A stretch of 64,000 bases of DNA, taken from positions 6,331 to 70,330 of the forward strand of contig DLLG01000011.1 of NCBI GenBank assembly GCA_002479075.1, written 5' to 3'. The notes under the pieces were generated by a model that was not told where the DNA came from, made no database searches, and saw only the letters and a program-made list of their open reading frames with translations. Of this stretch, positions 5,995 to 45,729 are shown piece after piece (position 1 is the first letter of the stretch; each line of letters opens with the position of its first letter). This DNA is from Clostridiales bacterium UBA7568 (GTDB lineage: Bacteria; Bacillota; Clostridia; Oscillospirales; CAG-272). The translations under genes and the position numbers were made by a program.

Positions 5995-6018
5995 CTGTTT
6001 ATTTGCTTTCGGAAATTA

Positions 6019-27220: not shown

Positions 27221-27309
27221 GGAGACGTATCGAAGTGGTCATAACGGGGCGCACTCGAAATGCGTTTGCCCTAACGGGCACGTGAGTTCGAATCTCACCG
27301 TCTCCGCCA
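27221..27309 (+). tRNA. tRNA-Ser (anticodon CGA), class II with long variable arm and encoded CCA
   Basis: Hand-folded. Acceptor GGAGACG/CGTCTCC, anticodon stem GCGCA/TGCGT with loop CTCGAAA, variable arm GCCC-TAAC-GGGC, T arm GTGAG-TTCGAAT-CTCAC, discriminator G plus CCA. Confidence 0.9.
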
Positions 27310-27387
27310 TCGAAAAGCCAGTAACCATGCGGTGTTGCTGGCTTTTTCATTTTTTCTCAAAAAATAAATTTTACGCAATTTTCGGAT

Positions 27388-27420
27388 TTTAGGAGAGAAA
27401 ATCATCATTTCTCTCCTAAA
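27388..27420. terminator. 13-bp perfect inverted repeat at the integrase 3' end
   Basis: tttaggagagaaa-atcatca-tttctctcctaaa overlaps the int stop codon. Confidence 0.45.
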
Positions 27421-28737: not shown

Positions 28738-29646
28738 TCAGCGAGCGTCTCGGTTTCGTTCTCTCTGCCGCTTTAACAGCTCCAAGCCTTTTATAATATC
28801 TCGGCGTATTTGCTCATCGGTGTAGCCCTGCGGAAAATACTTTTTAAAATCCTCACGCTTAAATTTTATCTGCTCCTGCTGATTCGGTTTTTCCTCCGAC
28901 ATCACCGCATAAATCATTTGGTTGTCCAGCATACCCTGCTGACTTAACTTTTTCAGCCGTATGCTTTGTGCGTGAGACGGTGTGCAGTCGTTCAGTTCCA
29001 TAGCGTCAAGCAGTATTCTCTGCTCTGACTTGTCTAAGTACGAAATTTCTACCGCAGGATTGAAAGCAATTTTGCCTTCGTCTACCATTGCAAGCAGTTC
29101 GGGGATTAAGTAGGTCAAACGGATATAACGCTGAATCTGTCTTCCGCTATCTACCGATTCATCAGCCATTTTTTCTCTTGACCACTTCTGGACAAGTTGT
29201 CCAGAAGCTACACCCTGATGTTTTATTGCTTCCAGTTTCATCTTATAGGCAAAGGCTTTTTCACTCGGCAAAATCGTCTCTCTTTGTAAATTTGCGTCTA
29301 CCATTGCGATAACTGCTTCATCATCGGACATCTCACGCACGATTACGGGCATTGTTTCAATTCCTAACACTCGACACGCTGCAAGCCTACGATGACCTGA
29401 GATAAGTTCGTAGCCACCGTCAGGCAAGGGTCTTGCAAGTGCCGGAGTGATTGCGCCTACCTTGCGTATGCTTTCAATCATTCGCTCCATTTCCTCATTG
29501 TTCTGCACTTTAAATGGATGATTTTTAAAGGGATGAAGTTCTGAAAGCGGAATGTTTTGAACACGCTCTAACTTTACATCGTCCCGCATTTCCTGCGTGG
29601 TGAATAAATCGTCCAGTTTAGGTAAAGTAAAATCTGATTTTCTCAT
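28738..29646 (-). CDS. ParB/Srx N-terminal-domain protein of the element backbone
   Basis: Frame of ORF 28738..29676. The second ATG at 29646 has the better RBS (AGAGAGGAAAA). The ParB box reads YELISGHRRLAACRVLG. Confidence 0.75.
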   Translation of the reverse strand: MRKSDFTLPKLDDLFTTQEMRDDVKLERVQNIPLSELHPFKNHPFKVQNNEEMERMIESIRKVGAITPALARPLPDGGYELISGHRRLAACRVLGIETMPVIVREMSDDEAVIAMVDANLQRETILPSEKAFAYKMKLEAIKHQGVASGQLVQKWSREKMADESVDSGRQIQRYIRLTYLIPELLAMVDEGKIAFNPAVEISYLDKSEQRILLDAMELNDCTPSHAQSIRLKKLSQQGMLDNQMIYAVMSEEKPNQQEQIKFKREDFKKYFPQGYTDEQIRRDIIKGLELLKRQRERNRDAR

Positions 29647-29666
29647 TGTTGTTTTCCTCTCTTTCG

Positions 29667-29909
29667 TTATTTCCATTTGAGCTCGCTTTCGGCGGGGCGT
29701 AAAAAGGTCGCCTCAATGTCCGCCTGAAATCGGTGCCACCGTTCCGCTTCTCGCCGCAGCATAGGCGCATCGACAAACCCCAGCGTATTCGCTTTCACCG
29801 CAAGCTGATTGATGTTGTTGCCGATGGTAGACAGCTTGCGCATTGCTTCATAGAAATTGCCGTCCGGTTTTTCTCTCGGCTCATACCCTCGAATCAGCAA
29901 ACGAATCAC
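29667..29909 (-). CDS. MobC-family relaxosome accessory protein (N-terminus uncertain)
   Basis: TIGNNINQLAVKAN motif. The same frame stays open upstream to about 29990 (KRIKKQFWLSSQEAAELKRKAELAGISETAV, RHH-like) without an ATG/GTG/TTG. The start is therefore non-canonical or the gene is damaged. Confidence 0.6.
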   Translation of the reverse strand: MIRLLIRGYEPREKPDGNFYEAMRKLSTIGNNINQLAVKANTLGFVDAPMLRREAERWHRFQADIEATFLRPAESELKWK

Positions 29910-30438: not shown

Positions 30439-31464
30439 CTATATAGAGATCTCGCCGTCATTTCCGTCACCGCTGTCATTCATTTCAAGCCGAATCAGGC
30501 GGCTTGTCCCCGTGCGTTTGGTTCTGTATTCAATGCCCTGTGGCATCAAAACCTCTGCCGAAAACCTCGCCAGCAGCTTGGTTACCACGTTTGCCGTGGT
30601 TTCAGTTTCGTTCATTTCGGTAAGTAGCTGACTTGCTGTGCCTTGCCAAGTTCTGCGCAAGGCTATGAAGGAAACAAGACGAAAAAGAAAGTTGGGAATC
30701 TCTTCTCGGTGAAGATCTTCGGCGTTCTTTCGTTCCACAAGCTCCCATAAATGGGTTCCGTTATCGAACTTCAGGGTAAGCTCCTGATACTCTATATCTC
30801 GTCCCGTAGCAAGGAGCGTTCCCATCTCGCTTGAGCGACTGCGTTTCAAAATAAAACTCGTATCAGCAGCTCCCGTGATACCCGTTGAACCCGTAACCTC
30901 GTTGAATGGGTCGTTGGCATCCTTCATTTTGCGAACGTGATGAACGACCACCACCGCTATCCCGAACCTATCCGAAATGGTTTTTAGCGCCGTGATATCG
31001 TCGTAATCTCCTGCATACATTCCGCTTTTACCGATGGTGTTTCGAGAGTCACGAACCTTTTGAAAAGTATCGATAATCACAAGCTTTGTGTTCGGAAAGT
31101 CGGTTAGATAATCTTCAATCTGATGCTCTAAACCATTCCCGATCTGAAAACTCGTGGTAGCAATTCGAAGCTCGGCAGGCGCTTCATCGGTCAGCTGATA
31201 CAAGCGGTTTTGAATACGAATGTGGGTATCTTCCAAGCACAGATACAGCACGTCGCACTTGTGGGTTTCAAATTCCCACACGGGATTTCCTCTTGCCACC
31301 TGCATACCGAGCCACAGCATCAGCCAGCTTTTACCGATCTTACTTGCGCCCGATAATACGCTCAGTCCCTGCGGTATCAAGCCTTCCACAACGAACAGTG
31401 TCTTGCGGAGCGGCGTTGATAACAAGGTGTCCGCATCAACGGTTCTCAATTTTTCAACTTGCAT
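30439..31464 (-). CDS. RecA-fold AAA_25/RepA-like ATPase
   Basis: ATG at 31464 follows GAAGGAGG. Walker A reads SGASKIGKSW and Walker B reads KLVIIDTF; VVVVHHVRK is also present. Confidence 0.7.
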   Translation of the reverse strand: MQVEKLRTVDADTLLSTPLRKTLFVVEGLIPQGLSVLSGASKIGKSWLMLWLGMQVARGNPVWEFETHKCDVLYLCLEDTHIRIQNRLYQLTDEAPAELRIATTSFQIGNGLEHQIEDYLTDFPNTKLVIIDTFQKVRDSRNTIGKSGMYAGDYDDITALKTISDRFGIAVVVVHHVRKMKDANDPFNEVTGSTGITGAADTSFILKRSRSSEMGTLLATGRDIEYQELTLKFDNGTHLWELVERKNAEDLHREEIPNFLFRLVSFIALRRTWQGTASQLLTEMNETETTANVVTKLLARFSAEVLMPQGIEYRTKRTGTSRLIRLEMNDSGDGNDGEISI

Positions 31465-31684
31465 TTTTCTCACCTCCTTCCTCCATAACATAGTTGATGA
31501 CATTGACCTTCGGGATCTTAAAGGCATTTCCGATTTTGATGCCGGAGATATATCCGTCGTTGATAAGGTCGTATGCCAAGTGTCTGCTGATGCCCAACAT
31601 TTTCTGAAGCTGAGCCACGGTTACGATGTCCGGATAGTCCGGAAACATCATCTTGTAGAGTTCTCTTAACTCTGTTTTTCTCAT
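31454..31684 (-). CDS. Excisionase-family helix-turn-helix protein
   Basis: 76 aa with VTVAQLQKMLGISRHLAYDLINDGYISGIKIGNAFKIPK. RBS is GGAGG. Confidence 0.7.
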   Translation of the reverse strand: MRKTELRELYKMMFPDYPDIVTVAQLQKMLGISRHLAYDLINDGYISGIKIGNAFKIPKVNVINYVMEEGGEKNAS

Positions 31685-32351: not shown

Positions 32352-33728
32352 ATGATTTTAAAAAGAATACCTGACAAATTGAAAAAGGATATTGAGCAGT
32401 TTCATTCTTCTAATAGCGACTCGAATGAGATATGGCTTCTCTCGGCAGATTCGGGAATGGGCAAGACCTATGCGGCGTTATCTTACTGCGTCGAAAATAA
32501 GGATAGCCTTTACTTTTCCTTTCGGCATATCAGCGCTGAACTTGCTCGGAAAACCTTTGCGGAGCGTTATCCCGATGTATTCAGGGATTGTGCAACTTGG
32601 TCGGCATTCTTCGATTGCCTACAAGTCTTTGGCAAAAGAAAACGCCCAACCGTCTTTTTTGACGATGTGGGCGAACGAAATGATAAGAATGATTTTTATG
32701 CGGCATTAAAGAACTTTTCAGAAGTAAGCAACGGTTGCGGTGTGCTTGTAGTGTTAATCGGCAGACCTTGGGAACAGATTGAAATACCCTGCCAAACGCT
32801 CTATATAACGCCATATTCCACGCAAGAGATTGCCGAAACGCTGTCCGTAAGCGACAAGGAATCGGTAGACATATTTTGCCTGTCGGCGGGTATTACGGAA
32901 CTTTTATCTCTTTACGATACGAGCATTTCTTTTGAAGAAAATGTAAAAGCGTTGCTTTATATCAATTCCCCGTTTTATCGACTAATAAATGATAAGATGT
33001 GCGAATGTTTCCGAACGCCCGAAAGCTACAACACGCTGCTATATGCAATGGTGAACGGTTATAATCGCATCACCGAACTGTCGGCGTTTTCAGGTTATCC
33101 GAAAAACAAATGCGATAAGTACATTAAAACGCTGTGCGAATTCGGTCTTGTCCGTAAGGAACCCGAAAAGAACGGACACACAAAGTATTATCCGGCGAAC
33201 AGCTACATTGCCCTGTGGTATAAAACTCTGCTGACCGCTGTACCAAACTCAGACGGCTGTTTCGGTGAAGATGTTTATAATCGTTTCGTGAGATATTTTA
33301 ACGATGAGATACTTTCTACATTTTACAAAGAAATGTGCGCCTATTGGTTAGATAAAAATCTCAATTCCATCTCAACGGACTACATTGACACCAAAGATTT
33401 AAGCTATCGGAATGTCAAAGTCGGCGAGGTAGCCTTTGATTTTGCCTGCGAGAAAAAACGGGCGGTATATGCCTATTACGATACAATTCCCGGTGAAAAA
33501 CTTACGCAAAAGCTCTGGAAAGAGATTGAAAGAAGCACTACAAAAGACAGACCGTTTTACGAGAATGAATACGTTATCTGCACCGTAAACCGTGTTCCTG
33601 ATAGCTACTGGACATTGAGCAAGCATTATGATAACGTGCATATCGTCAAGCTTTCTTCTCTATTTGCTACCTATAACAAGGAATATAACCGCCGTATGCA
33701 CCCTCGGTTTGTTCCGTCGTTTGTCTGA
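32352..33728 (+). CDS. P-loop ATPase of the DUF234 / archaeal-ATPase type (ATPase + wHTH + C-terminal nuclease-like module)
   Basis: 458 aa with Walker A SADSGMGKTY and Walker B VFFDDVG. A central wHTH-like region reads ITELSAFSGYPKNKCDKYIKTLCEFGLV. The C-terminal VGEVAFDFACEKK resembles the DUF234 core. Confidence 0.55.
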   Translation: MILKRIPDKLKKDIEQFHSSNSDSNEIWLLSADSGMGKTYAALSYCVENKDSLYFSFRHISAELARKTFAERYPDVFRDCATWSAFFDCLQVFGKRKRPTVFFDDVGERNDKNDFYAALKNFSEVSNGCGVLVVLIGRPWEQIEIPCQTLYITPYSTQEIAETLSVSDKESVDIFCLSAGITELLSLYDTSISFEENVKALLYINSPFYRLINDKMCECFRTPESYNTLLYAMVNGYNRITELSAFSGYPKNKCDKYIKTLCEFGLVRKEPEKNGHTKYYPANSYIALWYKTLLTAVPNSDGCFGEDVYNRFVRYFNDEILSTFYKEMCAYWLDKNLNSISTDYIDTKDLSYRNVKVGEVAFDFACEKKRAVYAYYDTIPGEKLTQKLWKEIERSTTKDRPFYENEYVICTVNRVPDSYWTLSKHYDNVHIVKLSSLFATYNKEYNRRMHPRFVPSFV

Positions 33729-34122: not shown

Positions 34123-34728
34123 ATGGCACTTGAAAATAAATTAGGTCTTACAAATTCTGCCGATCTTGCCCGTGAAGAAGAACGCATCAGCAAGAAAAAG
34201 GCTGCGGAGCTTTTTGAAAAAGGCATTTTAGCCAATCTTCCTGTCGGTAAGTTTTCTTCATTGCAGGCAATCCATAAATATCTCTTTGAGGATATTTACG
34301 ACTTTGCAGGCAAACTCAGAACAGTCAATATTGCAAAAGGAAATTTCCGTTTTGCACCGCTTATGTACTTGCAAGCGGCACTTGAAAACATTGATAAAAT
34401 GCCGCAGTCTACCTTTGACGAGATAGTAGAAAAGTATGTTGAGATGAACATCGCCCACCCTTTCCGTGAGGGCAACGGACGAAGCACTCGCATTTGGCTC
34501 GACCATATTTTGAAAACCGAAATCGGCAAAGTAGTGGACTGGAGCAAGCTTGATAAAGAAGATTACTTGCTTGCAATGGAGCGTAGCCCGATAAAAGATA
34601 TTGAAATCAAACACCTTTTGAAAAACGCACTTACCGATGAAATAGACAGCCGTGAGGTCTATATGAAAGGTATCGACCACAGCTACTATTACGAAGGATA
34701 CACAACCTTCAAGACGGAAGAATTGTAA
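34123..34728 (+). CDS. fic: Fic-family protein (AMPylase type), class-III-like with a C-terminal inhibitory motif
   Basis: 201 aa with active-site HPFREGNGRSTR (HxFx[DE]GNGRxxR). The C-terminal SYYYEG matches the (S/T)xxxE(G/N) auto-inhibition motif. Confidence 0.88.
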   Translation: MALENKLGLTNSADLAREEERISKKKAAELFEKGILANLPVGKFSSLQAIHKYLFEDIYDFAGKLRTVNIAKGNFRFAPLMYLQAALENIDKMPQSTFDEIVEKYVEMNIAHPFREGNGRSTRIWLDHILKTEIGKVVDWSKLDKEDYLLAMERSPIKDIEIKHLLKNALTDEIDSREVYMKGIDHSYYYEGYTTFKTEEL

Positions 34729-34779: not shown

Positions 34780-34841
34780 AACCGTGAATGCGAAATTTGT
34801 AGATGATTGAGGAAAAATCCTCTAATATAGGAGAATTCTAT

Positions 34842-35258
34842 ATGGATAATCATACCGAAGAACAGCGGCGTAAAAATATGCAAGCTGTAAAGAATAAAGA
34901 CTCCAAAATCGAAGTTATGTTACGTAAGGAATTGTGGGAACGAGGACTACGATATCAAAAGAACAGCAAAAAAGTTTTCGGCAAACCCGATATTGTATTT
35001 ATCGGCAAGAAAGTCGCCGTCTTTTGCGATAGCGAGTTTTGGCACGGATATGATTGGGATAACAAAAAGCAAGAAATAAAGTCTCGGCGAGAATTTTGGA
35101 TCCCCAAAATCGAACGAAACATACAACGAGATATAGAGGTAAACGAGAGACTCAAAACCGAGGACTGGACTGTTTTAAGGTTTTGGGGAAACGATATAAA
35201 GAAAAATTTGACTGTTTGTGCTGATAAAATTGAAAAGGCGGTAAAAGAAAATGTCTAA
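34842..35258 (+). CDS. vsr: Very-short-patch repair endonuclease
   Basis: ATG at 34842 follows AGGAG. Core Vsr signature is FGKPDIVFIGKKVAVFCDSEFWHGYDW. Its stop overlaps the next ATG (ATGTCTAA). Confidence 0.88.
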   Translation: MDNHTEEQRRKNMQAVKNKDSKIEVMLRKELWERGLRYQKNSKKVFGKPDIVFIGKKVAVFCDSEFWHGYDWDNKKQEIKSRREFWIPKIERNIQRDIEVNERLKTEDWTVLRFWGNDIKKNLTVCADKIEKAVKENV

Positions 35259-36255
35259 ACTGAAATCAATTGATTTGTTTGCCGGTATCGGCGGTATTCG
35301 GCTTGGTTTTGATAAAGCATTTAAAGAAGATATTGAAACGGTTTTCGTTAGCGAATGGGATGAATTTGCTCAAAAAACCTACAAAGCAAATTTTGAAGAC
35401 AGTTTCGAAATCGCAGGAGACATTACCAAAATCGACGAAAAAGAAATCCCTTCATTTGATATTTGTTTAGCAGGTTTCCCATGTCAGGCATTTAGTCTCG
35501 CCGGGCATAGAATGGGATTCGACGACAATTACAAAGGATTATGCAGAGGAACTCTGTTTATGGATGTTGCCCGAATTTGTGAATATCACAAACCGAAAGT
35601 TATCTTCTGTGAAAATGTTAAGGGTTTGGTTATACACGACAAAGGTAGAACTTTTAAGATTATCTGTAAGACATTTGAAGATTTAGGATACAGAGTGTTT
35701 TATCAAGTTCTAAACAGTAAAAATTACGGTGTGCCGCAAAATAGAGAAAGAATTTATATTGTTGCATTCAGGAATGATATTGCGCCCGATGAATTTGTCT
35801 TTCCGGACATTATAGATGACAGCAAACGATTGTGGGATATCAGAGAAGAAAAACCTGTGCCTGCAAAATATTATCTTAGCGATGTTTATCTGGATACACT
35901 TAGAAAGCATAAAGCTCGACACGAATCTAAAGGTAACGGATTTGGTTATGAAATTCGTGATTGGAGCGATATTGCAGGAGCAATCGTATGCGGTGGTATG
36001 GGTAGAGAAAGAAACCTCGTTATTGACAAGCGTCAAAAGAACCTTGTTCCCACAACGCATATTAAAGGAAACATCAATAAAGAAGGTATTCGTAAAATGA
36101 CACCTCGTGAATGGGCCCGTTTACAAGGATTTCCTGACAGCTTTGTTCTTCCCCTTGCCGATACACACCTATACAAGCAGTTTGGAAACAGTGTTACTGT
36201 TAATGTTATTGAAGCTATTGCAAATAAAATCAAGGAGGTTTTGACAAATGCCTGA
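35251..36255 (+). CDS. DNA (cytosine-5)-methyltransferase, copy 1
   Basis: Motif I DLFAGIGG, IV GFPCQAFS, VI ENVKGL, VIII QNRERIYIVAF, X QFGNSVTVNV. Confidence 0.93.
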   Translation: MSKLKSIDLFAGIGGIRLGFDKAFKEDIETVFVSEWDEFAQKTYKANFEDSFEIAGDITKIDEKEIPSFDICLAGFPCQAFSLAGHRMGFDDNYKGLCRGTLFMDVARICEYHKPKVIFCENVKGLVIHDKGRTFKIICKTFEDLGYRVFYQVLNSKNYGVPQNRERIYIVAFRNDIAPDEFVFPDIIDDSKRLWDIREEKPVPAKYYLSDVYLDTLRKHKARHESKGNGFGYEIRDWSDIAGAIVCGGMGRERNLVIDKRQKNLVPTTHIKGNINKEGIRKMTPREWARLQGFPDSFVLPLADTHLYKQFGNSVTVNVIEAIANKIKEVLTNA

Positions 36256-37444
36256 TTTGTGCGGAAATAAAGGCGAATGGTCAGAAATATATATTTTTCT
36301 TAAACTTATGAGCGACGGAAAAGTATATGCCGCTGATAAAAACATGAATCGCTTAACAAATGTTTTTCTCAATATTATTAAAATCATACGTGAGGAATAC
36401 AAAAATCAAAAATATGAATATTACACAGGCCCTGTCGTTAAAATCTTCTTGAATGAAACTGAAGTAGGACCAGATGTAAATATAACCGATTTTCAGACGG
36501 CAAGAGATCAACTTTGGAATGTGCTGAAAAATGCTACTCGTGGAAACGGTATTACTTGTGATACTGTCGAGACATTCCTGAGTTCAATCTATGTTACAAA
36601 ATTAAAAGCGCCTGCGGCACAACAAAATGAATTTTTTGGTGGTACACAAGATATAACCATGCAAGTTCAAGATTACAGAAATGGTATTGCATCTGTTATT
36701 GGATTTTCGTGCAAATCCGACTTTACCGCAAAATCCACTTTGTTTAACGCAAGCAAAGATAACACAAATTTCACATTCGAAATCGTTGGTAATATTGATG
36801 ACACCTTGATGAATCGATTCAACAATACATATACCATACGAAACAAGAAGAATAAAGAAACCGGGTTAATGGAGCCACATGAGGTTATAGCAATTCGGGA
36901 ACGCATACAACTTTTAAAAGCTGCTGAATGTGATATTGTTTACAGCAATATGCCCGTAAACAGTGCAAAACGGAATTTAATACTTTCAGGCGGTAACGAA
37001 ATGCCGTTGATAGTCGCTAACATGCTTAAAGCCTATTACTTTGAGGGAGAAGGTCAAGCGGCAAATTCATCTATTGAATATGCATTAGATTATGTTGTTC
37101 GCAATAATTCTGCAGAATATGAATTTGACGATACAGCGAGCATGTACAGAAGAAAGATCGGAACACTTTTGTATGATATGTTTACCGGAATGCGTTTAGC
37201 TAAGGCTTGGGATGGCAGAAGCAGTGTAAATGGTGGATATATCGTTGCAAAAGACGATGGCGATGTTGTTGCGTATCACTCTTGCATGGCTGACGAGTTT
37301 AAAGATTTTCTTATTCACCAATTAGGATTTGAATCTCCTTCTGCATCAAGACATCAATATATACAGATATACAAAGATAATGGAAAGTATTATTTGAAAT
37401 TAAATCTTCAGGTAAGATTTAAGGGCGTTTCTGACGAAGAATAA
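36248..37444 (+). CDS. Type II restriction endonuclease, HpaII-like (tentative)
   Basis: 398 aa with an 8-nt overlap with the upstream MTase. The N-terminal NKGEWSEIYIFLKLMSDGKVYAAD resembles, from memory, the HpaII-family N-terminus. It sits in the R position of a Vsr-M-R arrangement. Confidence 0.55.
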   Translation: MPDLCGNKGEWSEIYIFLKLMSDGKVYAADKNMNRLTNVFLNIIKIIREEYKNQKYEYYTGPVVKIFLNETEVGPDVNITDFQTARDQLWNVLKNATRGNGITCDTVETFLSSIYVTKLKAPAAQQNEFFGGTQDITMQVQDYRNGIASVIGFSCKSDFTAKSTLFNASKDNTNFTFEIVGNIDDTLMNRFNNTYTIRNKKNKETGLMEPHEVIAIRERIQLLKAAECDIVYSNMPVNSAKRNLILSGGNEMPLIVANMLKAYYFEGEGQAANSSIEYALDYVVRNNSAEYEFDDTASMYRRKIGTLLYDMFTGMRLAKAWDGRSSVNGGYIVAKDDGDVVAYHSCMADEFKDFLIHQLGFESPSASRHQYIQIYKDNGKYYLKLNLQVRFKGVSDEE

Positions 37445-37471
37445 CTTGACTAAAATTGAAAGGGAAATCCC

Positions 37472-38410
37472 ATGAAAGTTGGTAGTTTATTCTCAGGCAT
37501 AGGCGGGATTGACTTAGGGTTCGCTCAAGCCGGATTTCAAATTTGCTGGGCTAACGAAATTGATCCGGATGCTTGCAAAACCTATAGACTCAACTTTCCG
37601 TCAACTCGTTTGATTGAGGGAGACATAAAAGATATTGAGCCCCGCTCATTAGAACCAGTTGATGTGATAACCGCCGGATTTCCATGCCAATCGTTTTCCG
37701 TTTGTGGAAATCAAAAAGGTTTTAATGATAAACGAGGGAATTTATTCTTTGAAATAATGAGAATAATTGATGTGCTCAATCCAGTAATTGTTTTCTTAGA
37801 AAATGTCGCTAACCTTACGGAACATGACAACGGAAGAACTTTTAATGTTATTCATAACGAGTTAGTGTGCAGAGATTATTCTATCAGATACGTTATAGCC
37901 GATGCTTGCGATTATGGTATCCCTCAACATCGCACAAGAACATATATAGTTGCATTTAAATCGCAAGAAATGTGTGATAACTTTAAATTCCCTGACAAAT
38001 GCATACTTGAAAAGCGGATATTTGGTATTATCGATAAAACCGCAAAAGTTGAAGATTCTTATTATTTAAAAAAAGATTCTAATCAGTATCGAAAACTAAC
38101 TGAATTTATCAAGGATGATAAGCAAATATATCGTTTTTCGGATTATGGTATTCAGTCAAGTAAAGACGGAATATCTTTCACGTTAAAAGCGAATATGGGC
38201 ACTTGGAGAGAACGGGTTCCGTATATAAAAGACAATTATGGCATTAGGAAGATTACCCCTTACGAATGCTTAGCATTACAAGGGTTTTCTCAAGGATATC
38301 ATTTTCCCAAAATCCCGATATCAAGTGCATATAAACAATGCGGTAATAGCGTTGTTGTGCCAGTAGTTAAAGGAATAGCCGAGCAGATAGCGATAGTAAT
38401 TGCACCATAG
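37472..38410 (+). CDS. DNA (cytosine-5)-methyltransferase, copy 2
   Basis: Motif I SLFSGIGG, IV GFPCQSFS, VI ENVANL, VIII QHRTRTYIVAF, X QCGNSVVVPV. The target-recognition region differs from copy 1. Confidence 0.93.
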   Translation: MKVGSLFSGIGGIDLGFAQAGFQICWANEIDPDACKTYRLNFPSTRLIEGDIKDIEPRSLEPVDVITAGFPCQSFSVCGNQKGFNDKRGNLFFEIMRIIDVLNPVIVFLENVANLTEHDNGRTFNVIHNELVCRDYSIRYVIADACDYGIPQHRTRTYIVAFKSQEMCDNFKFPDKCILEKRIFGIIDKTAKVEDSYYLKKDSNQYRKLTEFIKDDKQIYRFSDYGIQSSKDGISFTLKANMGTWRERVPYIKDNYGIRKITPYECLALQGFSQGYHFPKIPISSAYKQCGNSVVVPVVKGIAEQIAIVIAP

Positions 38411-38433: not shown

Positions 38434-39837
38434 ATGGAGCGAGAAAATATTTCAATTGATCTATTATTACTTTCCGATGGAAATCCCAGATTAGATCCAT
38501 CGTTGGGAGAAGACGAAGCTATTTTTAATATGGTTAATGACCAAAACGATAAGTTGTTTGAGCTCGCCTCTGATATTGTAAAACACGGACTGAATCCATT
38601 AGATACAATAGGTGTTTATCCATCTGAAACATATCATGGTTTTTATGAAGTTGGCGAAGGTAACCGACGTATATGTGCATTAAAACTATTGATTTCCCCT
38701 GGGCGCATTCAACATATTAATGGCAGTTTGTATTCAAAATTCCTGTCATTATCAAAGACATACTCCGCACCTAACTTGATAGAAGTGGGAGTATTCAATG
38801 ATGAAATCTCTATGCGACATTGGATGGAAATTCGTCATATGGGTGAGCAAAGTGGTAAAGGATTATCAAAGTGGAATTCTGTACAAAAAGCTCGCTTTAA
38901 TCGAATGCAAACGGGTTCTGATGCACTGCTTGATTTTTGGGACTGGATGATTGCGAATAGTATCCTTTCTGAAGCAGAAATCTTAAGTGTCACAAAAACC
39001 AATTGGCAACGTATTCTTCGTGAAAAGTATTTTCCATTTTTAAAAATTCAATATGACGGAAATTATTCTGTTTTACCTAAAGACATAGATGTTTTCACAT
39101 ATCGAATCAGAGAAGTCCAAAAAAAGTTGGATGGGCAAACAGTGGCTATAGTGTATGACCAAATAAGGATTGAAGAATTTTTTAATTCTATTTCAAATGT
39201 GCTATACGGAAAGTCCTATCAAGAAGTAGTAAATGAAGAGTCGGAACAAATCGATATTCTTCCTCCTTTGCAAGAAACTAACATTAGTAACGAAACGGAA
39301 CAAGTTGGTGACATTTCCACATCTCAAGGCAGCTCTGTTAGTGGTTCAACTATTGAAGAAAACGATGATAGCACCCTTTCTCAAACAATATCAAATACTG
39401 TACAAACCATCGGAAGAGATGTTTTTAATGGTTGTGGCACAATTATTCCATATGGATATCCTATTCGCACTGACAATATGCGATTAAATAAAATCATCAA
39501 TGAACTTAAAAGAATAAATGCTGATGATTATCCAAATGCTTGTGGAACTCTTTTGAGAACACTTTTTGAACTTTCGGCAAAGGTATATTTAGAAAAGCAG
39601 GATGGACAAGATCATACTGAAACCGAATTTTCACCAGCTATTAAACAAGCAGCTAATCTATTACGTCAGCAACGATGTATCGATAACAGTCAACATTCGG
39701 CCATTAATAGCGATATCGACAATTTAAGAAAGATTTTTAATGGTTATATGCATAATACTGAATCTTACCCAAGCAGCGAAGCACTTAAAAATTTCTTTAA
39801 ATGCCACCGTGTGTTTATTCAAGAGTGTTTAAAGTAA
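38434..39837 (+). CDS. Uncharacterised protein: N-terminal ParB/Srx-fold domain, Ser/Thr-rich linker, C-terminal helical domain
   Basis: 467 aa. The ParB-type signatures are DGNPRL and YEVGEGNRRICALKLL. A low-complexity linker spans about aa 270-320. The C-terminal domain contains LRKIFNGYMH, a loose R-x7-H that is only HEPN-reminiscent. Confidence 0.6.
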   Translation: MERENISIDLLLLSDGNPRLDPSLGEDEAIFNMVNDQNDKLFELASDIVKHGLNPLDTIGVYPSETYHGFYEVGEGNRRICALKLLISPGRIQHINGSLYSKFLSLSKTYSAPNLIEVGVFNDEISMRHWMEIRHMGEQSGKGLSKWNSVQKARFNRMQTGSDALLDFWDWMIANSILSEAEILSVTKTNWQRILREKYFPFLKIQYDGNYSVLPKDIDVFTYRIREVQKKLDGQTVAIVYDQIRIEEFFNSISNVLYGKSYQEVVNEESEQIDILPPLQETNISNETEQVGDISTSQGSSVSGSTIEENDDSTLSQTISNTVQTIGRDVFNGCGTIIPYGYPIRTDNMRLNKIINELKRINADDYPNACGTLLRTLFELSAKVYLEKQDGQDHTETEFSPAIKQAANLLRQQRCIDNSQHSAINSDIDNLRKIFNGYMHNTESYPSSEALKNFFKCHRVFIQECLK

Positions 39838-39852
39838 CAGGAAGGTGATATT

Positions 39853-41502
39853 GTGATTAAGAATATAAATATTATTCAATATCGAAAACTCAAGGATTTG
39901 ACTTTAGGTTTTACTAAAAATATTAATGCAATTTCAGGCACTAATGGTACTTGCAAAACATCATTATTGCATCTGTTAGGTAATTCTTTGCAAGCTCCAA
40001 CGAAAACATGCAGTTGGATAACCGATGAGAAATGTTTGCCTATAATCAAAGCTGTAAATAATGTGACGAATCCAAAGGTTGAAAGTCTTACTCGTGGAGA
40101 TCAAACATATAATGATCCCGCTCACGGAGTAAAAGGTCCTTTATTTTCAGTTGATTATTATGGTGCAGAATCCTTAAACTTCAGACGTCATAATTCTACG
40201 CAAATGACTCGTTATGCCGTAAAACCAAAATATCAACCGGGAACAAAAGACACATTACCATATTGCCCTGTAATTTATTTAGGACTTTCAAGATTAGTGC
40301 CTTTTGGTGAGTTTCAGAATGATGATGCATTATCTAACATAAAGAAGAAACTGCCTCAATCATATCAAGATGAAATTGCCGAACTGTACAAAAAATTCAC
40401 CAATTATGAAATCTTATTTAATGCCACTAAACAGATGGGCGACATAAAGGTAAGAAGTGAATTTTCAAGCAATGTAGAAGGTATCGACTCTAATACAATA
40501 TCTGCTGGTGAGGACAACTTGAGCATTATACTCACAGCACTTATTTCACTAAAATACTATTATGAATCTATATCTTCTGCTAATGACGTAGAGAGTGTTC
40601 TCTTGATTGACGAAATGGATGCAACATTACATCCCGCCTTCCAAATTAAACTTTTGAATTTATTCCGTGAAATGTCTGAAGCATATAAGATGCAGGTGGT
40701 ATTCACAACACATAGTATGTCTCTTTTGGAAGAGATGCTTGCAAAAAAGGACAATGTACTATATTTAATTGATAATGTAACTTCAGTTTTCCAAATGGAA
40801 GATCCTGATATCTACAAAATCAAAATGCATTTACAATCCTTAACGCAAGAAGACATCTATGAAGATAAAGTAATACCTTTATTTACCGAAGATGATGAGG
40901 CACGCTGCTTGCTTGAATTACTTTTTGATTACTATCAGAAAACATATTCTGAGTTCCGAAATGTTAGCGGGCTGTTCCACAAGGTTCTCACTAACATTAG
41001 TGCAGAAAACTTAACAGGAATATTCACAGACAGTAAACTTTTACATACTACAATGCGGTCTATTTGTGTTTTGGATGGCGACCACAAGTCTGATATAACA
41101 AACTTCATTGTGGCTCTTCCCGGAAAGGCCGCTCCCGAAGCGGTATTGTTAAATTATATTGAGAAGCTTTATGATGATGACGATCCTTTTTGGAGAGATA
41201 GAACCATAGTTGACAAAGGTTATACAAAAAACTACTATATTACTAATATAAAAAATATAGTTGATAATTTTGAAGCAGATCTTGTTAGATTGCACGAAAA
41301 CGGCGAGTCTGCCAAAGGAAAACGCCGAGCGTTCAATAAAAAACTTTTTAATGATAACCAAAACTTTTTCAAGTTAGTATTCAAACATTGGATTCATAAT
41401 CCCATAAACAAATCCGAAGTTGAGCGCTTCTATAACGAACTTCATATCTTATTCCTGAAAGTAGCGCCTTATCACGAAATTAATCCAAAGGAATGGGCAT
41501 AA
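39853..41502 (+). CDS. OLD-family-like protein: ABC-type ATPase fused to a Toprim-like C-terminus
   Basis: 549 aa with a GTG start after AGGAAGGTG. Walker A ISGTNGTCKTSLL, signature-like ISAGEDNLS, Walker B VLLIDEMDATLHP and H-loop FTTHS are present. C-terminal LFTEDDEA and CVLDGDHKSD resemble the Toprim E and DxD motifs. Confidence 0.6.
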   Translation: MIKNINIIQYRKLKDLTLGFTKNINAISGTNGTCKTSLLHLLGNSLQAPTKTCSWITDEKCLPIIKAVNNVTNPKVESLTRGDQTYNDPAHGVKGPLFSVDYYGAESLNFRRHNSTQMTRYAVKPKYQPGTKDTLPYCPVIYLGLSRLVPFGEFQNDDALSNIKKKLPQSYQDEIAELYKKFTNYEILFNATKQMGDIKVRSEFSSNVEGIDSNTISAGEDNLSIILTALISLKYYYESISSANDVESVLLIDEMDATLHPAFQIKLLNLFREMSEAYKMQVVFTTHSMSLLEEMLAKKDNVLYLIDNVTSVFQMEDPDIYKIKMHLQSLTQEDIYEDKVIPLFTEDDEARCLLELLFDYYQKTYSEFRNVSGLFHKVLTNISAENLTGIFTDSKLLHTTMRSICVLDGDHKSDITNFIVALPGKAAPEAVLLNYIEKLYDDDDPFWRDRTIVDKGYTKNYYITNIKNIVDNFEADLVRLHENGESAKGKRRAFNKKLFNDNQNFFKLVFKHWIHNPINKSEVERFYNELHILFLKVAPYHEINPKEWA

Positions 41503-41505
41503 CAC

Positions 41506-42384
41506 ATGAAAGGAGGAAATAATTTGCCACTAACACCATCACCGCTTAGATATCCTGGCGGGAAAACTAAACTGTATAATTATGTTAAATCAATTATAGA
41601 AGCTAATAATTTGATTGGAGAGACATATATCGAGCCTTTTGCCGGTGGATCGGGGTTGGCTTTAAAACTATTATTGAATAACGATGTGAAGAGAATTGTA
41701 ATCAATGATTTGGATCCAGCGATATATGCGTTTTGGTATTGTGTGCTTAATCATCCTGATGAAATGTGCGATTTTGTTACTACAGTTTCGTTGACGGTTG
41801 AAGAATGGGATAATCAACACAGTATCTACGTCAATCAGCAAAATCACACTCAATTAGAATTAGCTAAAGCAACATTGTTTTTGAACAGAACCAATGTGTC
41901 TGGTGTTATTACTGGCGGTGTGATTGGAAAGCGAGATCAAACCGGTAAGTACAAAATAGACGCTCGTTTTAACAGAGAAGAACTTGCAAGGAAAATACGA
42001 ACAATATCTGCATTATCAAATAAAATTGATTTGTATAATTTAGATGCTGTGACTTTTTTGCAAAATGAACTGCACCATTATTACAAAGCCTTTATCAACT
42101 TTGATCCTCCATATGTGGTCAAGGGTGGTCAATTATATAAGAACTCCTTTACAGAGGAGGATCACCGATCGCTTAGAAACCAAATTGCCAAGTGCAAAAG
42201 AAAATGGATAGTCACGTATGATATGTGTGATCTAGTTGCGAAACTTTATTCTGGCTTTAGAAGAAGTACTGTAGATATTTACTATAGTGCAAATGGAGCA
42301 AAAAAAGCTAAGGAATATATCTTCTTTAGTAATAATTTAATATTGCCCGAAGACACAACTTTTATAAAAGACAATGAGAATTGA
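41506..42384 (+). CDS. Dam-like N6-adenine DNA methyltransferase (D12 class)
   Basis: LRYPGGKTKL, EPFAGGSGLAL, NDLDP and the catalytic NFDPPY. TTG at 41524, after AAAGGAGG, may be the true start. The gap to the upstream gene is only 4 nt. Confidence 0.85.
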   Translation: MKGGNNLPLTPSPLRYPGGKTKLYNYVKSIIEANNLIGETYIEPFAGGSGLALKLLLNNDVKRIVINDLDPAIYAFWYCVLNHPDEMCDFVTTVSLTVEEWDNQHSIYVNQQNHTQLELAKATLFLNRTNVSGVITGGVIGKRDQTGKYKIDARFNREELARKIRTISALSNKIDLYNLDAVTFLQNELHHYYKAFINFDPPYVVKGGQLYKNSFTEEDHRSLRNQIAKCKRKWIVTYDMCDLVAKLYSGFRRSTVDIYYSANGAKKAKEYIFFSNNLILPEDTTFIKDNEN

Positions 42385-42401: not shown

Positions 42402-42432
42402 ACAGGCACGAGAGAATGACTCCCGTGCCTGT
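42402..42432. terminator. Hairpin terminator between the convergent dam-like and tnpV-side genes
   Basis: acaggcacg (42402-42410) pairs with cgtgcctgt (42424-42432). Confidence 0.5.
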
Positions 42433-42434
42433 TA

Positions 42435-42581
42435 TCATTTTATGTATTTGATTATAAGTTCATCGACGCCGTCGGTGTATTTGCCTTGGGAAATTAGCTT
42501 ATTGCGGTATTCAAGCAAGCATTGAAGGATGAAATGGTGTTCTACGTCGGTTAGGCGAAGGTAATATTTCCGTTTTCTCAT
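42435..42581 (-). CDS. Small protein (48 aa) translationally coupled to tnpV
   Basis: Below the track size cutoff, found manually: MRKRKYYLRLTDVEHHFILQCLLEYRNKLISQGKYTDGVDELIIKYIK. It has an ATGA overlap with the tnpV stop. Confidence 0.5.
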   Translation of the reverse strand: MRKRKYYLRLTDVEHHFILQCLLEYRNKLISQGKYTDGVDELIIKYIK

Positions 42582-42949
42582 ACGTACACCACATCGGAAT
42601 AGACAGTTTCAATCACACGCTCTCGGACGTTATTCATTTTCTGCACCCACTTCATTTGGTCGGTGGCTTTGAGGTGTTCGGTAATGTCTTCCTTTTCGGC
42701 GTGTTCTTTTACGAGCCGAGAAAAGAGGCTCTGCGCTTGTTCTTCGATATCTGCAAGGTGGGAATGGAGCTTGCCGGAAGTGAGCAGATTATAATACAAA
42801 ATTTTGCGGTGGTGCTTTATGTAGTTTAGTCTGCGCTGCCCCCATACGCCGATGGGGCGTTCTTCTTCAGTGGGTGGAAGCAGATTCGGCAAGCGGTAAT
42901 CGCCTTGCATAGTGTAAGTTCCGCCTTGTTGTTCAAAGATTGATTTCAT
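42578..42949 (-). CDS. tnpV: TnpV-like transposon-associated protein
   Basis: 123 aa. MKSIFEQQGGTYTMQGDYRLPNLLPP...IGVWGQRRLNYIKHHRKILYYNLLTSGKLHSHLADIEEQA matches my recollection of the Tn4451 TnpV family. Confidence 0.65.
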   Translation of the reverse strand: MKSIFEQQGGTYTMQGDYRLPNLLPPTEEERPIGVWGQRRLNYIKHHRKILYYNLLTSGKLHSHLADIEEQAQSLFSRLVKEHAEKEDITEHLKATDQMKWVQKMNNVRERVIETVYSDVVYV

Positions 42950-42962
42950 ATGTAATCCTCCT

Positions 42963-43265
42963 TTACGATTCCTTCAGCAAATCCTCAAACGGTGTTTCGG
43001 TGGAGATGAACGCATCGTAGGCAAAGTTCGCCCCTAAACGGAATCCCATAATGAAACTATCAAGATTGGATTCGCCGTTTACAACACCCCAGGCGTTCAC
43101 ATAGTCGAGGAACCATTTCTTCTGTTCATTGTGCAGAGCGTTGGTTAGCAAATCTTCGTTCTTCATAAGAATTTCCATTTGCTTCTTCACTGCTTTGTTC
43201 TGTTTGGTACTGCGTGCCTGCGGATCGATGTTGCCGTAATAAAACTCTTCAATAAATCGTGCCAT
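42963..43265 (-). CDS. Hypothetical protein (100 aa) of clostridial mobile-element type
   Basis: ATG at 43265 follows AAGGGGGG and gives MARFIEEFYYGNIDPQARSTKQNK... The upstream part of the track ORF looks spurious. Confidence 0.5.
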   Translation of the reverse strand: MARFIEEFYYGNIDPQARSTKQNKAVKKQMEILMKNEDLLTNALHNEQKKWFLDYVNAWGVVNGESNLDSFIMGFRLGANFAYDAFISTETPFEDLLKES

Positions 43266-43382
43266 TGTTTGCACCCCCCTTACGGCTATAGTGTAGCAAA
43301 AAACTTTTTGGAGTGCGATTGTGCAAATTTTGAAATCGCACATAGAAAAAGCACCCGCCCGAAGGCAGGTGCTCAAAAGCTG

Positions 43383-43964
43383 TTATTTACTCCGTTCTTT
43401 CTGCATAAGGTGGTGGAACTCATTTATCGTCTGAATATGCCAAGAAGTTTTACGGATGATACTGCGAAAATATGGGGAGCAGAAAAACTCGATTAGGAAT
43501 ACTTTGGGAATGTAATAGGTGTTGTGCTTTATAAAGTGCTTAAGCCGTCCCTTGCCGCACCAGTTGGTAACGGTGGACTTTGCATATCCGGTTAGCTTAA
43601 CGACCTCCTGAGAGGTAATAACGTCCTTATAGTCGGATAAAAGATCGGCATAATATTCGTGGAGCAATTTCAACGCTTCTTCTGACATCTCAACAGGAAG
43701 TGTTATTTTATGATTTCCCTTATACCATCCTTTAGGAGCAGAATAGTATTCGGGAAACTTGCCCTTTCTTTCTAAGTATTTCTGTACGTCTGCTTTCTTG
43801 ATTTTATAGCATCGGGTTTTCTTGCCCGAATACTCACATGGGACTGCTCCGCTTTTAAGCAGATACAGAGCAGTGGACTTGCTGATGTGGCAAATACGAT
43901 AGAATTGCTCTTTCGTAATGACTTCGGGAACCTCGTTCCAATTGATCGGTCTGTGATATTTCAT
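43383..43964 (-). CDS. Helix-turn-helix (excisionase-type, duplicated) DNA-binding protein
   Basis: 193 aa with two HTH-like segments: ITKEQFYRICHISKSTALYLLKSGAVPC and ITSQEVVKLTGYAKSTVTNWCGKGRLKH. Confidence 0.6.
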   Translation of the reverse strand: MKYHRPINWNEVPEVITKEQFYRICHISKSTALYLLKSGAVPCEYSGKKTRCYKIKKADVQKYLERKGKFPEYYSAPKGWYKGNHKITLPVEMSEEALKLLHEYYADLLSDYKDVITSQEVVKLTGYAKSTVTNWCGKGRLKHFIKHNTYYIPKVFLIEFFCSPYFRSIIRKTSWHIQTINEFHHLMQKERSK

Positions 43965-44294: not shown

Positions 44295-44462
44295 GAAGCA
44301 AAACAATCTGAACATTATCATCAATGGTGATACGTTCGGATTTTTGATTTTTATGAGTTATTTTATATTTTAGAAATTACTGTGGTTCTTATAATACCAA
44401 TTCATATTGTTATATGCACTCCAATAATTTTTATGTAACATCTTGTCGAAATATGAAAATTA

Positions 44463-44471
44463 TGATATAAT
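44463..44471 (+). promoter_or_regulatory. Extended -10 element (TGATATAAT)
   Basis: A perfect TGnTATAAT lies 32 nt upstream of the TTG at 44503. No good -35 was seen. Confidence 0.35.
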
Positions 44472-44502
44472 ATTTTTGCATAAAGTGGTTGGGAGTGGTT
44501 TT

Positions 44503-45729
44503 TTGCGAAAGATTTTTCTTTTTTTGATTATAACAGTTAGTATTATTAGTCTTTTTTCAATATCAGCATATGCTGATAATACTGTTGCTATAGGCGATGT
44601 TAACTCCAATAGCAGCGGCGAATTGGTTGCCCAAGTTGAATCTTCTCAAGATTTGTCATCAATTTGTGCTGACCTTGTAAAATCAACGCAGTCTTGGGTT
44701 TCTTTAATAATGATAATTTTTTTGGCACTATATGTGCTTCTATTTAAGAAGGATATGCCTAAAATTTGGAAATTAATCGTCCCTGCCGTTTTGATAATAG
44801 TTACTTTTGGGGTTAGGCTATCATTGTATTTTAAGTGTTCGGATTTTTTACTCACTTTGATTGTGACGGGGATACAAATTATTTATTTCTTGATATTAAT
44901 CAGATTTTGGAAAAAGACTCAAACGATTACGCACGAAACAGCCATTCCCAAAAACGCTCTTGAAAAAAAGGCCTGTACAGTAATTCAAAAGCTTCTTAAT
45001 AAGAGCCATTATGCGATAGAATGTATACAATTATACACGATTCAAGCCAATACCGACCAAACGATCACTTCATTCCAAATAGATTTTCTTGGCGGAAGTT
45101 CCAAACAAGGAGTAAATATTAACGCTTTATTCTCAACTTCGTTGAAAATACCTACAGAGCATATTACTTCAATGGAAACTATCCAAACACTATATACTCA
45201 ATTTATTGCAGAAGGAAATGTTACCGAAAGTCAAGAAAATGCCGTTTCGGTATTGATTTTAAATGAAATCAAAAAATTAAAACAAACATTAAATGGAATT
45301 AAATCGACAAATGAGATTTCAGAAAACGAATGTTATTTAGCAAGAATTTTGCTTGTTTATTTATCGTTATACGCAACAATTAATGAGCATGATACATATA
45401 TTGGATTAGGCAGAGAATGTCTTGATTTGAAAAATCCTGATTTAGAACCATTGCTATTTACATATGAAAGAACTGGCATACTTGGAGCGATACTTTTGAA
45501 CCAAATACCTTATGTTTTTTCATATAGACGTGGTGGCGGAAAAACAGGGCGTTTTTACTACACATTTTCTTGCGGTTCCAAGAAAAAATATATAGTGTTG
45601 GTATCCATGAAAAATAAAAACAAATCATATTACATTGATAATTTTATGGCTAACAATATTAAAACTATACGACAACAGTTGATTAAGATTTTGAATCCTA
45701 ACAATGCATCTGAAAAGGTTGGTGATTAG
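44503..45729 (+). CDS. Hypothetical multi-pass membrane protein with a ~250-aa soluble C-terminal domain
   Basis: Frame of ORF 44443..45729. TTG at 44503 follows GGGAGTGG and gives (M)RKIFLFLIITVSIISLFSISAYA (signal-like). Three or four TM helices follow, then an unrecognised domain. The gene is very AT-rich. Confidence 0.55.
   Translation: MRKIFLFLIITVSIISLFSISAYADNTVAIGDVNSNSSGELVAQVESSQDLSSICADLVKSTQSWVSLIMIIFLALYVLLFKKDMPKIWKLIVPAVLIIVTFGVRLSLYFKCSDFLLTLIVTGIQIIYFLILIRFWKKTQTITHETAIPKNALEKKACTVIQKLLNKSHYAIECIQLYTIQANTDQTITSFQIDFLGGSSKQGVNINALFSTSLKIPTEHITSMETIQTLYTQFIAEGNVTESQENAVSVLILNEIKKLKQTLNGIKSTNEISENECYLARILLVYLSLYATINEHDTYIGLGRECLDLKNPDLEPLLFTYERTGILGAILLNQIPYVFSYRRGGGKTGRFYYTFSCGSKKKYIVLVSMKNKNKSYYIDNFMANNIKTIRQQLIKILNPNNASEKVGD

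Follow-up and report, generated by a model that had tools for sequence, protein, structure and literature searches.

Three co-directional genes, called here genes 1, 2 and 3, occupy positions 38,434 to 42,384 of a 64,000-nucleotide (nt) stretch of contig DLLG01000011.1 (assembly GCA_002479075.1, positions 6,331 to 70,330 of the forward strand) from Clostridiales bacterium UBA7568; this whole stretch is referred to as the window. They code for a protein with a ParB-like N-terminal part, an OLD-like protein with an ABC ATPase domain and a Toprim-like domain, and a D12-class adenine DNA methyltransferase (Table 1), and an earlier note on this DNA had taken them together for an undescribed defence module. 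Judged by its profile matches and gene order, the operon is a three-gene variant of the anti-phage system PD-λ-5, genes 1 and 3 being a new member of this known system, and only gene 2 and its link to this methyltransferase clade appear to be unnamed. The three open reading frames (ORFs) are all found on the + strand at the positions first reported, with untranslated gaps of 15 and 3 nt, the values of 16 and 4 given earlier being coordinate differences. The motifs quoted at that time are all present in the translations: DGNPRL, GEGNRRICALKLL and LRKIFNGYMH in gene 1, GTNGTCKTS, LLIDEMDATLHP, FTTHS, TEDDEA and VLDGDHKSD in gene 2, LRYPGGK and NFDPPY in gene 3. They are invariant across 42-45 homologues and are therefore not due to chance.

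The identity of genes 1 and 3 emerges from the PADLOC profiles. Residues 1-463 of gene 1 align with positions 1-461 of the 466 positions of the PD-Lambda-5_A profile PDLC03998 (E 8.8e-76), and 25 PD-Lambda-5_A profiles are matched altogether. In the case of gene 3, the matches are to PD-Lambda-5_B (PDLC04018, E 5.5e-111) and MTase_II (PDLC03358, 3.5e-89); the Pfam family MethyltransfD12 (1.4e-22) confirms the D12 adenine methyltransferase proposed earlier, and the S-adenosylmethionine motif EPFAGGSG and the catalytic DPPY (residues 200-203, positions 42103-42114) are invariant among the homologues. PD-λ-5 is a two-gene system discovered by functional selection in a prophage of E. coli ECOR7 and annotated 'ParB/HEPN, methyltransferase'; it conferred broad protection, affecting all but one of the ten phages tested in E. 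coli, its methyltransferase forced its cloning in a Δmrr MG1655 host, and it was termed a 'compacted RM+Abi system', that is, restriction-modification (RM) with abortive infection (Abi) (Vassallo et al. 2022, PMC9519451). The operon of the window resembles it in the A and B profile matches, in the association of a ParB/HEPN protein with a D12 methyltransferase, in gene order and strand, and in its carriage by a mobile element. It differs from it in its host, the present operon belonging to a gut Clostridia-type element, and in the 1650-nt ATPase-Toprim gene inserted between A and B, which directly follow one another in the canonical system. The reading of the locus as a defence module is upheld, genes 1 and 3 being of the type of a system validated in E. 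coli; the novelty claimed for it is lost for these two genes, a profile match to a named system having been specified beforehand as the finding that would speak against it, and appears to be retained for gene 2.

In its AlphaFold model (pLDDT 81), gene 1 begins with the ParB/sulfiredoxin (Srx) fold anticipated by the earlier note, for which Foldseek retrieves KorB, Noc, ParB and sulfiredoxin from the PDB and ParB-like phage proteins from BFVD, and the Ser/Thr-rich linker that had been pointed out is predicted to be disordered. In homologues as distant as 18% identity, residues N17, R19, G76-N77-R78-R79, H135, W147, R193 and H440 are invariant and R375 is nearly so, the invariant NPR and GNRR elements corresponding to the nucleoside triphosphate (NTP) pocket of ParB. 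The C-terminal domain had been called loosely HEPN-like, and this wording proves accurate: H440 and R375 are kept, R432 of the R-x7-H string singled out at that time is not, and the label chosen by Vassallo et al. is 'ParB/HEPN'. The domain reading of gene 1 therefore arrives at the annotation already published for PD-λ-5_A, to whose enterobacterial form gene 1 is about 24% identical. No Pfam or NCBIfam family matches gene 1, a scan of 45 homologues giving only sub-threshold hints of DUF5677 and DUF4145; the search of PDB sequence profiles gave no match, the Foldseek search with the C-terminal domain gave nothing significant in the PDB (HepT at E 5.6) and no match in BFVD, and tblastn against phage GenBank entries returned just five partial N-terminal matches. 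Proteins of 359 amino acids (aa) encoded at 4980-6059 of the viral contigs L118-L121 resemble gene 1 in its ParB-like N-terminal part only; no gene-3-type methyltransferase adjoins them, a C5 methyltransferase of the opposite strand being found about 1 kb downstream, and they may belong to a different ParB-based module.

Gene 2 is matched in Pfam by AAA_15 (1.1e-15), AAA_21 and SMC_N, and carries a complete set of ATPase motifs, namely the Walker A motif G29-S37, the signature S217-A-G-E220, the Walker B residues D253-E254 and the H-loop H287, all of which, including G29-K35, are invariant in 42 homologues. In the AlphaFold2 model of its C-terminal part, a strand at 341-345 is followed by E346 and D347 and a second one at 404-407 by D408-G-D410, and this order of a strand with Glu and a strand with DxD is the Toprim arrangement; E346, D347, D408, D410, R492 and K496 remain invariant even when relatives of 20-40% identity are included. 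The best Foldseek matches are the OLD effector of retron Eco8, Thermus OLD and GajA, aligned over nearly the full length (514-650 columns), and PtuA and Rad50 are also found through the ATPase domain; the PADLOC profile of the retron ATPase-Toprim_I-B aligns through residue 417. An OLD-type architecture, as the earlier note had proposed, is thus supported for gene 2 by the predicted fold and the conserved motifs. Searches of PDB sequence profiles with the full-length protein matched the ATPase motifs only, and those with the C-terminal domain alone yielded spurious globin matches. The family of this C-terminal domain comprises 154 cluster representatives among 1.84 billion, in which it is always found at the C-terminus of proteins of about 550-615 aa.

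The earlier note had placed gene 2 outside Gabija, PARIS, Septu and the solitary OLD proteins, and we reach the same result, the partner genes of these systems being absent and a methyltransferase adjoining it. The four published OLD classes (class 1, P2 Old and Thermus OLD; class 2, GajA; class 3, the retron Eco8 effector; class 4, PARIS) share with gene 2 the ABC ATPase and the C-terminal Toprim-like E/DxD residues, whereas its D12 methyltransferase context occurs in none of them and its Toprim-like domain is the more divergent, lying outside the Pfam and PDB sequence profiles. For Gabija, no helicase or GajB is present among nine operon proteins, and what the GajA profiles match in gene 2 is limited to its ATPase motifs. 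For the retrons, no reverse transcriptase domain was found in the neighbouring genes, the non-coding RNA not having been searched for. In the case of PARIS, the AriA (E 1.9e-16) and AriAB (1.1e-12) profiles match the ATPase part of gene 2 only, none of 42 members of the gene 2 family matches DUF4435, and gene 2 is a single polypeptide whereas PARIS is split into AriA and AriB. For Septu, no HNH protein occurs in the operon, and the PtuA matches to gene 2 are limited to the ATPase motifs. WonAB, a system made of an OLD-ABC protein and a restriction endonuclease, was also considered and judged unrelated.

The best PADLOC match of gene 2 is a remote one (E 2e-18, residues 140-442 only) to HEC-04, Hma-embedded candidate 04, a validated single-protein ATPase-Toprim (Payne et al. 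2024 preprint). HEC-04 is likewise a single polypeptide with an ABC ATPase and a Toprim domain inside a methylase-containing defence system, but it works alone, embedded in Hma, whereas the gene 2 family has a PD-λ-5_B-type methyltransferase as its constant companion. The PrrC-EcoprrI and Rlo loci offer a further parallel, an ABC-ATPase-linked nuclease placed inside an RM locus as a second, abortive layer, and an RM+Abi analogy was drawn for PD-λ-5 by Vassallo et al. (PMC9519451); PrrC, however, is a HEPN anticodon nuclease with a type I RM partner, while here a lone D12 methyltransferase is accompanied by a ParB/HEPN protein and the ATPase bears a Toprim-like domain. Type II RM systems with a D12 methyltransferase of the Dam/DpnII class also associate a dedicated, tightly linked adenine methyltransferase with putative nucleases. 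They differ in that the operon has no recognised restriction endonuclease fold, its candidate nucleases being the NTPase-coupled ParB/HEPN and ABC/Toprim proteins, and no known restriction endonuclease family is among the best PADLOC matches of genes 1 and 2.

Relatives of gene 2 were sought in about 185,000 genomes, one per species; 168 were found, in Firmicutes, Proteobacteria (E. coli among them), Actinobacteria, Bacteroidales and other groups. The 80 loci kept include Firmicutes, Collinsella, Bacteroidales, Kiritimatiellia and, from the Proteobacteria, Xenorhabdus, Pantoea, Haemophilus, Neisseria and Rhizobium, besides others. Where at least 2.5 kb of flank was available on both sides, a strong gene-3-type methyltransferase adjoins the gene 2 relative in 50 of 53 loci, a weaker D12 methyltransferase being nearby in the remaining three; the gap between the two genes has a median of 21 nt, and a PD-λ-5_A homologue is also present in 14 of the 53 only. 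In E. coli genomes the pair of ATPase-Toprim and methyltransferase genes lies in an integrative and conjugative element (ICE) and beside integrases, under the RefSeq labels 'ATP-dependent nuclease' or 'AAA family ATPase' and 'DNA adenine methylase'; these methyltransferases match PD-Lambda-5_B at about 1e-122, and the ATPases have nothing but generic ATPase motifs in common with any named PADLOC system. Homologues of gene 1 are nearly all followed directly by the methyltransferase, which is the canonical PD-λ-5 and is often found in prophages. In gut Firmicutes, where the identity to gene 1 exceeds about 55%, the middle position is usually taken by an ATPase, which is either of the gene 2 type or of a second lineage, with just 26% identity in the ATPase domain but with the E-DD and DxD residues kept. 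The latter is exemplified by L136:6393-8036 (also L137-L139, L143, L151 and L152), a protein of 547 aa with the motifs ILEDDVE and IFDADV, and the middle slot thus holds different lineages in related loci. Among the divergent ATPases linked to the methyltransferase, the succession of a strand with E and a strand with DxD is present in 30 of 30, and the profile of the gene 2 C-terminal domain matches 28.

The same association is seen when the methyltransferase is taken as the anchor. In viral contigs, 59 family-level methyltransferases with an upstream flank were counted, and 54 have one or both partners: PD-λ-5_A only in 31, ATPase-Toprim only in 21, both in 2 and neither in 5. Neither partner accompanies any of 17 distant D12 methyltransferases of these contigs. 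Gene 3 is accordingly no ordinary orphan Dam, the alternative named beforehand as one that would speak against the module, since most members of its family have partners and the 17 distant D12 enzymes have none. Over all loci, and with A standing for PD-λ-5_A, T for ATPase-Toprim and M for the methyltransferase, the two-gene orders are A>M (67), T>M (48) and M>T (8), and the trio occurs in six orders, A>T>M (13), T>A>M (5), A>M>T< (4), A>M>T> (4), T>M>A< (3) and T>M>A> (1). The trio is co-conserved in other genomes, a point that the earlier note had asked to be checked, and it is a minority arrangement. In the methyltransferase tree the A-M, T-M and trio architectures are interleaved, and in the clade of the window itself A is missing from the T-M loci L012 and L016 and T from the A-M locus L127. 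An arrangement of four genes is seen on a metagenome contig (L164:237-5419), where PD-λ-5_A is present as tandem paralogues of 483 and 423 aa and the methyltransferase and an ATPase-Toprim gene come after them. Mirror-tree correlations are positive and modest (Pearson 0.55 for ATPase and methyltransferase and 0.92 for A and methyltransferase; Spearman 0.31 and 0.42, respectively) and we do not rely on them.

Could the operon then result from the mere co-localisation of PD-λ-5 and an unrelated, self-sufficient OLD gene, of the class 1 or HEC-04 type, brought together by the 'sink' dynamics of defence islands? HEC-04-type ATPase-Toprim proteins do function as single genes, and the close relatives just mentioned, with either partner missing, speak for this reading. 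Class 1 OLD proteins are solitary, however, whereas the relatives of gene 2 essentially never are: the methyltransferase stands beside them across a wide range of phyla, whichever of the two genes comes first, and the linkage is specific to this methyltransferase clade. We regard co-localisation as improbable on account of this near-obligate and clade-specific linkage.

The main rival of the model that we favour would make of gene 2 a guard or back-up, an abortive module similar to PARIS or PrrC that would watch over the methyltransferase or the whole of PD-λ-5 rather than over DNA methylation, and that would be triggered by a phage anti-restriction factor such as an Ocr-like DNA mimic, a SAM lyase or an Stp-like peptide; gene 2 would then probably be a tRNase. 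ABC ATPase/Toprim genes are indeed commonly embedded in methylase systems (Hma, BREX, type I RM), where they have been proposed to be back-ups triggered by anti-defence factors. PrrC-EcoprrI is a precedent, the nearest PADLOC relative of gene 2 is itself an embedded and validated protein, PD-λ-5 has been described in RM+Abi terms, and an embedded role would explain the 13 loci in which a gene of this type is placed between A and M. Moreover, in recent work on P2 Old the ATPase senses DNA structures and the Toprim domain cuts tRNA, and the Toprim domain of PARIS also cuts tRNA. On the other hand, in most loci the methyltransferase is the only partner of the ATPase-Toprim and no further nuclease is there to be backed up, the surveillance of a lone methyltransferase would be unusual, and the likeness to HEC-04 is distant and partial. 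On balance the guard explanation seems to us rather unlikely.

The model we favour, and which we consider probably correct although by no means secure, treats the PD-λ-5_B-type methyltransferase as a constant hub that takes PD-λ-5_A, the ATPase-Toprim or both as partners, the operon of the window being a methyl-gated three-gene variant of PD-λ-5. It is the partner counts around gene 2 and around the methyltransferase, together with the six gene orders, that make the methylase look like a hub with interchangeable partners. The earlier note had divided the roles of effector and sensor between the OLD-like and the ParB-like proteins. This division finds no support. Each of the two types accompanies the methyltransferase without the other far more often than with it, and is therefore more likely to be a self-contained sensor-effector. 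The methyltransferase would mark a short motif of the resident DNA with N6-methyladenine. Each partner would be a fusion of a sensor and an effector, in which an NTP-dependent DNA-engaging module, either a ParB-type NTPase clamp with a helix-turn-helix (HTH) or an ABC ATPase head, would remain silent on methylated DNA, and would switch on a nuclease-type domain, HEPN-like or Toprim, upon meeting unmethylated incoming DNA. The activated nuclease would then cut either the DNA of the invader or the RNA or tRNA of the host, the latter resulting in abortive infection. Both outcomes have precedents among OLD-type proteins such as P2 Old and those of PARIS and Gabija, in which the ATPase senses DNA and the Toprim domain cleaves tRNA or DNA. 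The presence of two mechanistically different effectors behind a single methyl mark would make escape harder. The analysis itself establishes what the genes are, how their domains are built, which catalytic residues are conserved and that the genes are linked whatever their order; that methylation gates activation, what is cut and whether genes 1 and 2 co-operate are inferred. The model provides a testable hypothesis for the mechanism of PD-λ-5 and for self/non-self discrimination by OLD proteins.

Could the ATPase-Toprim and its methyltransferase also constitute, by themselves, a fifth, methylation-coupled class of OLD systems, a widespread two-gene 'OLD-RM' that would be the sister arrangement of PD-λ-5? 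We advance this idea tentatively, with somewhat more doubt than conviction. An ABC-ATPase/Toprim protein would there take the place of the classical restriction enzyme, and both effectors could be combined in one operon. Neither PADLOC 2.0 nor the OLD class scheme nor the literature searched gives the pair a name, although an earlier computational description may exist; PADLOC 2.0 would then show nothing more than a 'PD-Lambda-5_B' or type II methylase that looks like an orphan. Literature searches for a methyltransferase-linked OLD class or for the mechanism of PD-λ-5 returned nothing specific. If confirmed, the pair would give the OLD family one more class defined by context, and would illustrate how effectors can be exchanged as modules around a modification enzyme.

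Several observations weigh against the model of a methyl-gated hub with two nuclease-type partners. The canonical HEPN motif Rx4-6H is not conserved in gene 1, in which just H440 and R375 stand for it, and the C-terminal domain of gene 2 has no Pfam or PDB sequence-profile match, so that its Toprim assignment is one of fold, topology and motifs. Most loci have one partner only, and genes 1 and 2 therefore need not co-operate. The samples consist of the best 80 matches of each scan, the metagenome set is biased towards close relatives, and the ORFs were called mechanically. Lastly, in 12 loci the effector is fragmented and the methyltransferase intact, the reverse being seen in 1-2 loci, and while this pattern of decay weakly supports an RM-like logic, some of the frameshifts may be assembly errors.

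The earlier description of the surroundings as a restriction/methylation island on a mobile element agrees with what we find, RM genes lying upstream of the trio within a low-GC block (GC 0.33-0.41 against about 0.48) flanked by an integrase. Because this block extends between a tRNA-Ser with its tyrosine integrase (27221-28613) and the TnpV, DUF6809 and HTH_17 genes (42578-43964), it is taken to be an integrative element of about 20 kb. The defence genes follow the AAA_25 gene and precede those of TnpV, DUF6809 and HTH_17, and the far end of the element seems to lie ahead of a Na+/H+ exchanger gene at 47490. The search for a direct att repeat around it gave just one 17-nt repeat, probably due to chance, and none that is convincing.

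Table 1. Features of the operon and of the surrounding element in the window (coordinates in nt from the first letter of the window)
Feature	Position	Strand	Residues	Remarks
Gene 1	38434-39837	+	467 aa	ATG start; PD-Lambda-5_A-type ParB/HEPN protein
Gene 1, ParB/Srx N-domain	38434-38808		about 1-125
Gene 1, helical/HTH-like middle			126-272
Gene 1, Ser/Thr-rich linker	39250-39417		273-328	predicted disordered
Gene 1, helical C-terminal domain	39418-39834		329-467
Gene 2	39853-41502	+	549 aa	GTG start; OLD-like ABC ATPase with Toprim-like domain
Gene 2, ABC (OLD/SMC-type) ATPase domain	39853-40857	+	1-335
Gene 2, Toprim-like domain and helical tail	40858-41502	+	336-549
Gene 3	41506-42384	+	292 aa	annotated ATG start; PD-Lambda-5_B-type D12-class N6-adenine DNA methyltransferase
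Hairpin	42402-42432			13 bp, GC-rich; 18 nt past the stop codon of gene 3, in the gap that separates it from the convergent TnpV gene; from the scan for terminator-like sites
Integrative element	27221-47400			about 20 kb, low GC; adjoins tRNA-Ser(cga)
Integrase	27405-28613			on the element
ParB_N protein	28738-29676			on the element; canonical, separate from gene 1
AAA_25 protein	30439-31527			on the element
ATPase-like ORF	32352-33728		458 aa	heads the co-directional gene run
Fic protein	34123-34728		201 aa
Vsr	34803-35258	+		same strand as the trio, upstream
C5 methyltransferase (Dcm)	35251-36255	+		same strand, upstream
HpaII-family restriction endonuclease	36248-37444	+		same strand, upstream
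Second C5 methyltransferase (Dcm)	37472-38410	+		same strand, directly upstream of gene 1
Membrane-like ORF	44443-45729		428 aa

This location lends itself to an explanation outside defence, in which the methyltransferase would shield the DNA of the element against the restriction systems of the host, and the ParB-like protein and the ABC ATPase would serve in its maintenance, partition or addiction as a stabilisation module of the toxin-antitoxin kind. The relatives found in prophages and ICEs and the maintenance roles known for ParB and SMC-like ATPases would be in keeping with it, and the RM-like decay would fit addiction equally. Yet PD-λ-5 cloned alone blocked infection in the ten-phage panel, the window possesses a separate, canonical ParB_N gene, and the nuclease-type catalytic residues are invariant, and we hold a role that is not primarily defensive to be highly improbable.

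As to expression of the operon, genes 1 and 2 are preceded by good Shine-Dalgarno-like ribosome-binding sites. The annotated ATG of gene 3 has a poor one, and a much better site, AAAGGAGG at 41509-41516, precedes an in-frame TTG at 41524; the profiles of gene 3 homologues start to align near residue 10. Because of its stronger ribosome-binding site, the TTG, 18 nt downstream, may be the true start, the product then having about 286 aa. The hairpin downstream of gene 3 is likely to mark the end of the operon, the scan for terminator-like sites having found none on the + strand between 34800 and 42384. The promoter scan gave fewer matches than shuffled sequence and is uninformative.

The Vsr, Dcm and HpaII-family genes at 34803-38410 form a separate RM cluster of the HpaII type directly upstream of the trio. 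The neighbouring Dcm and HpaII genes accompany the trio in the three closest loci only, and the second Dcm was for this reason rejected as a component of the system. In L008, a locus 98% identical to that of the window, both C5 methyltransferases are near-identical to those described here (E 1e-230 and 4e-184) while the restriction endonuclease between them is distant (5e-62), which suggests that the HpaII-type allele has been swapped between conserved methyltransferases.

Three further genes of the element deserve mention. The 458-aa ORF with which the co-directional run begins is ATPase-like, with a P-loop-like GMGKT motif; a weak match to the TrmB winged HTH (E 0.0012) is its only one, no PADLOC or NCBIfam family being found. 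The 428-aa ORF downstream of the trio resembles a multi-pass membrane protein, has no Pfam match, and lies in the stretch of lowest GC in the window (0.325). The Fic protein, encoded upstream of the trio and on its strand, matches the PADLOC candidate PDC-S04 (E 1e-105) and the NCBIfam family NmFic (7e-96), and constitutes a further putative defence or toxin gene of the island.

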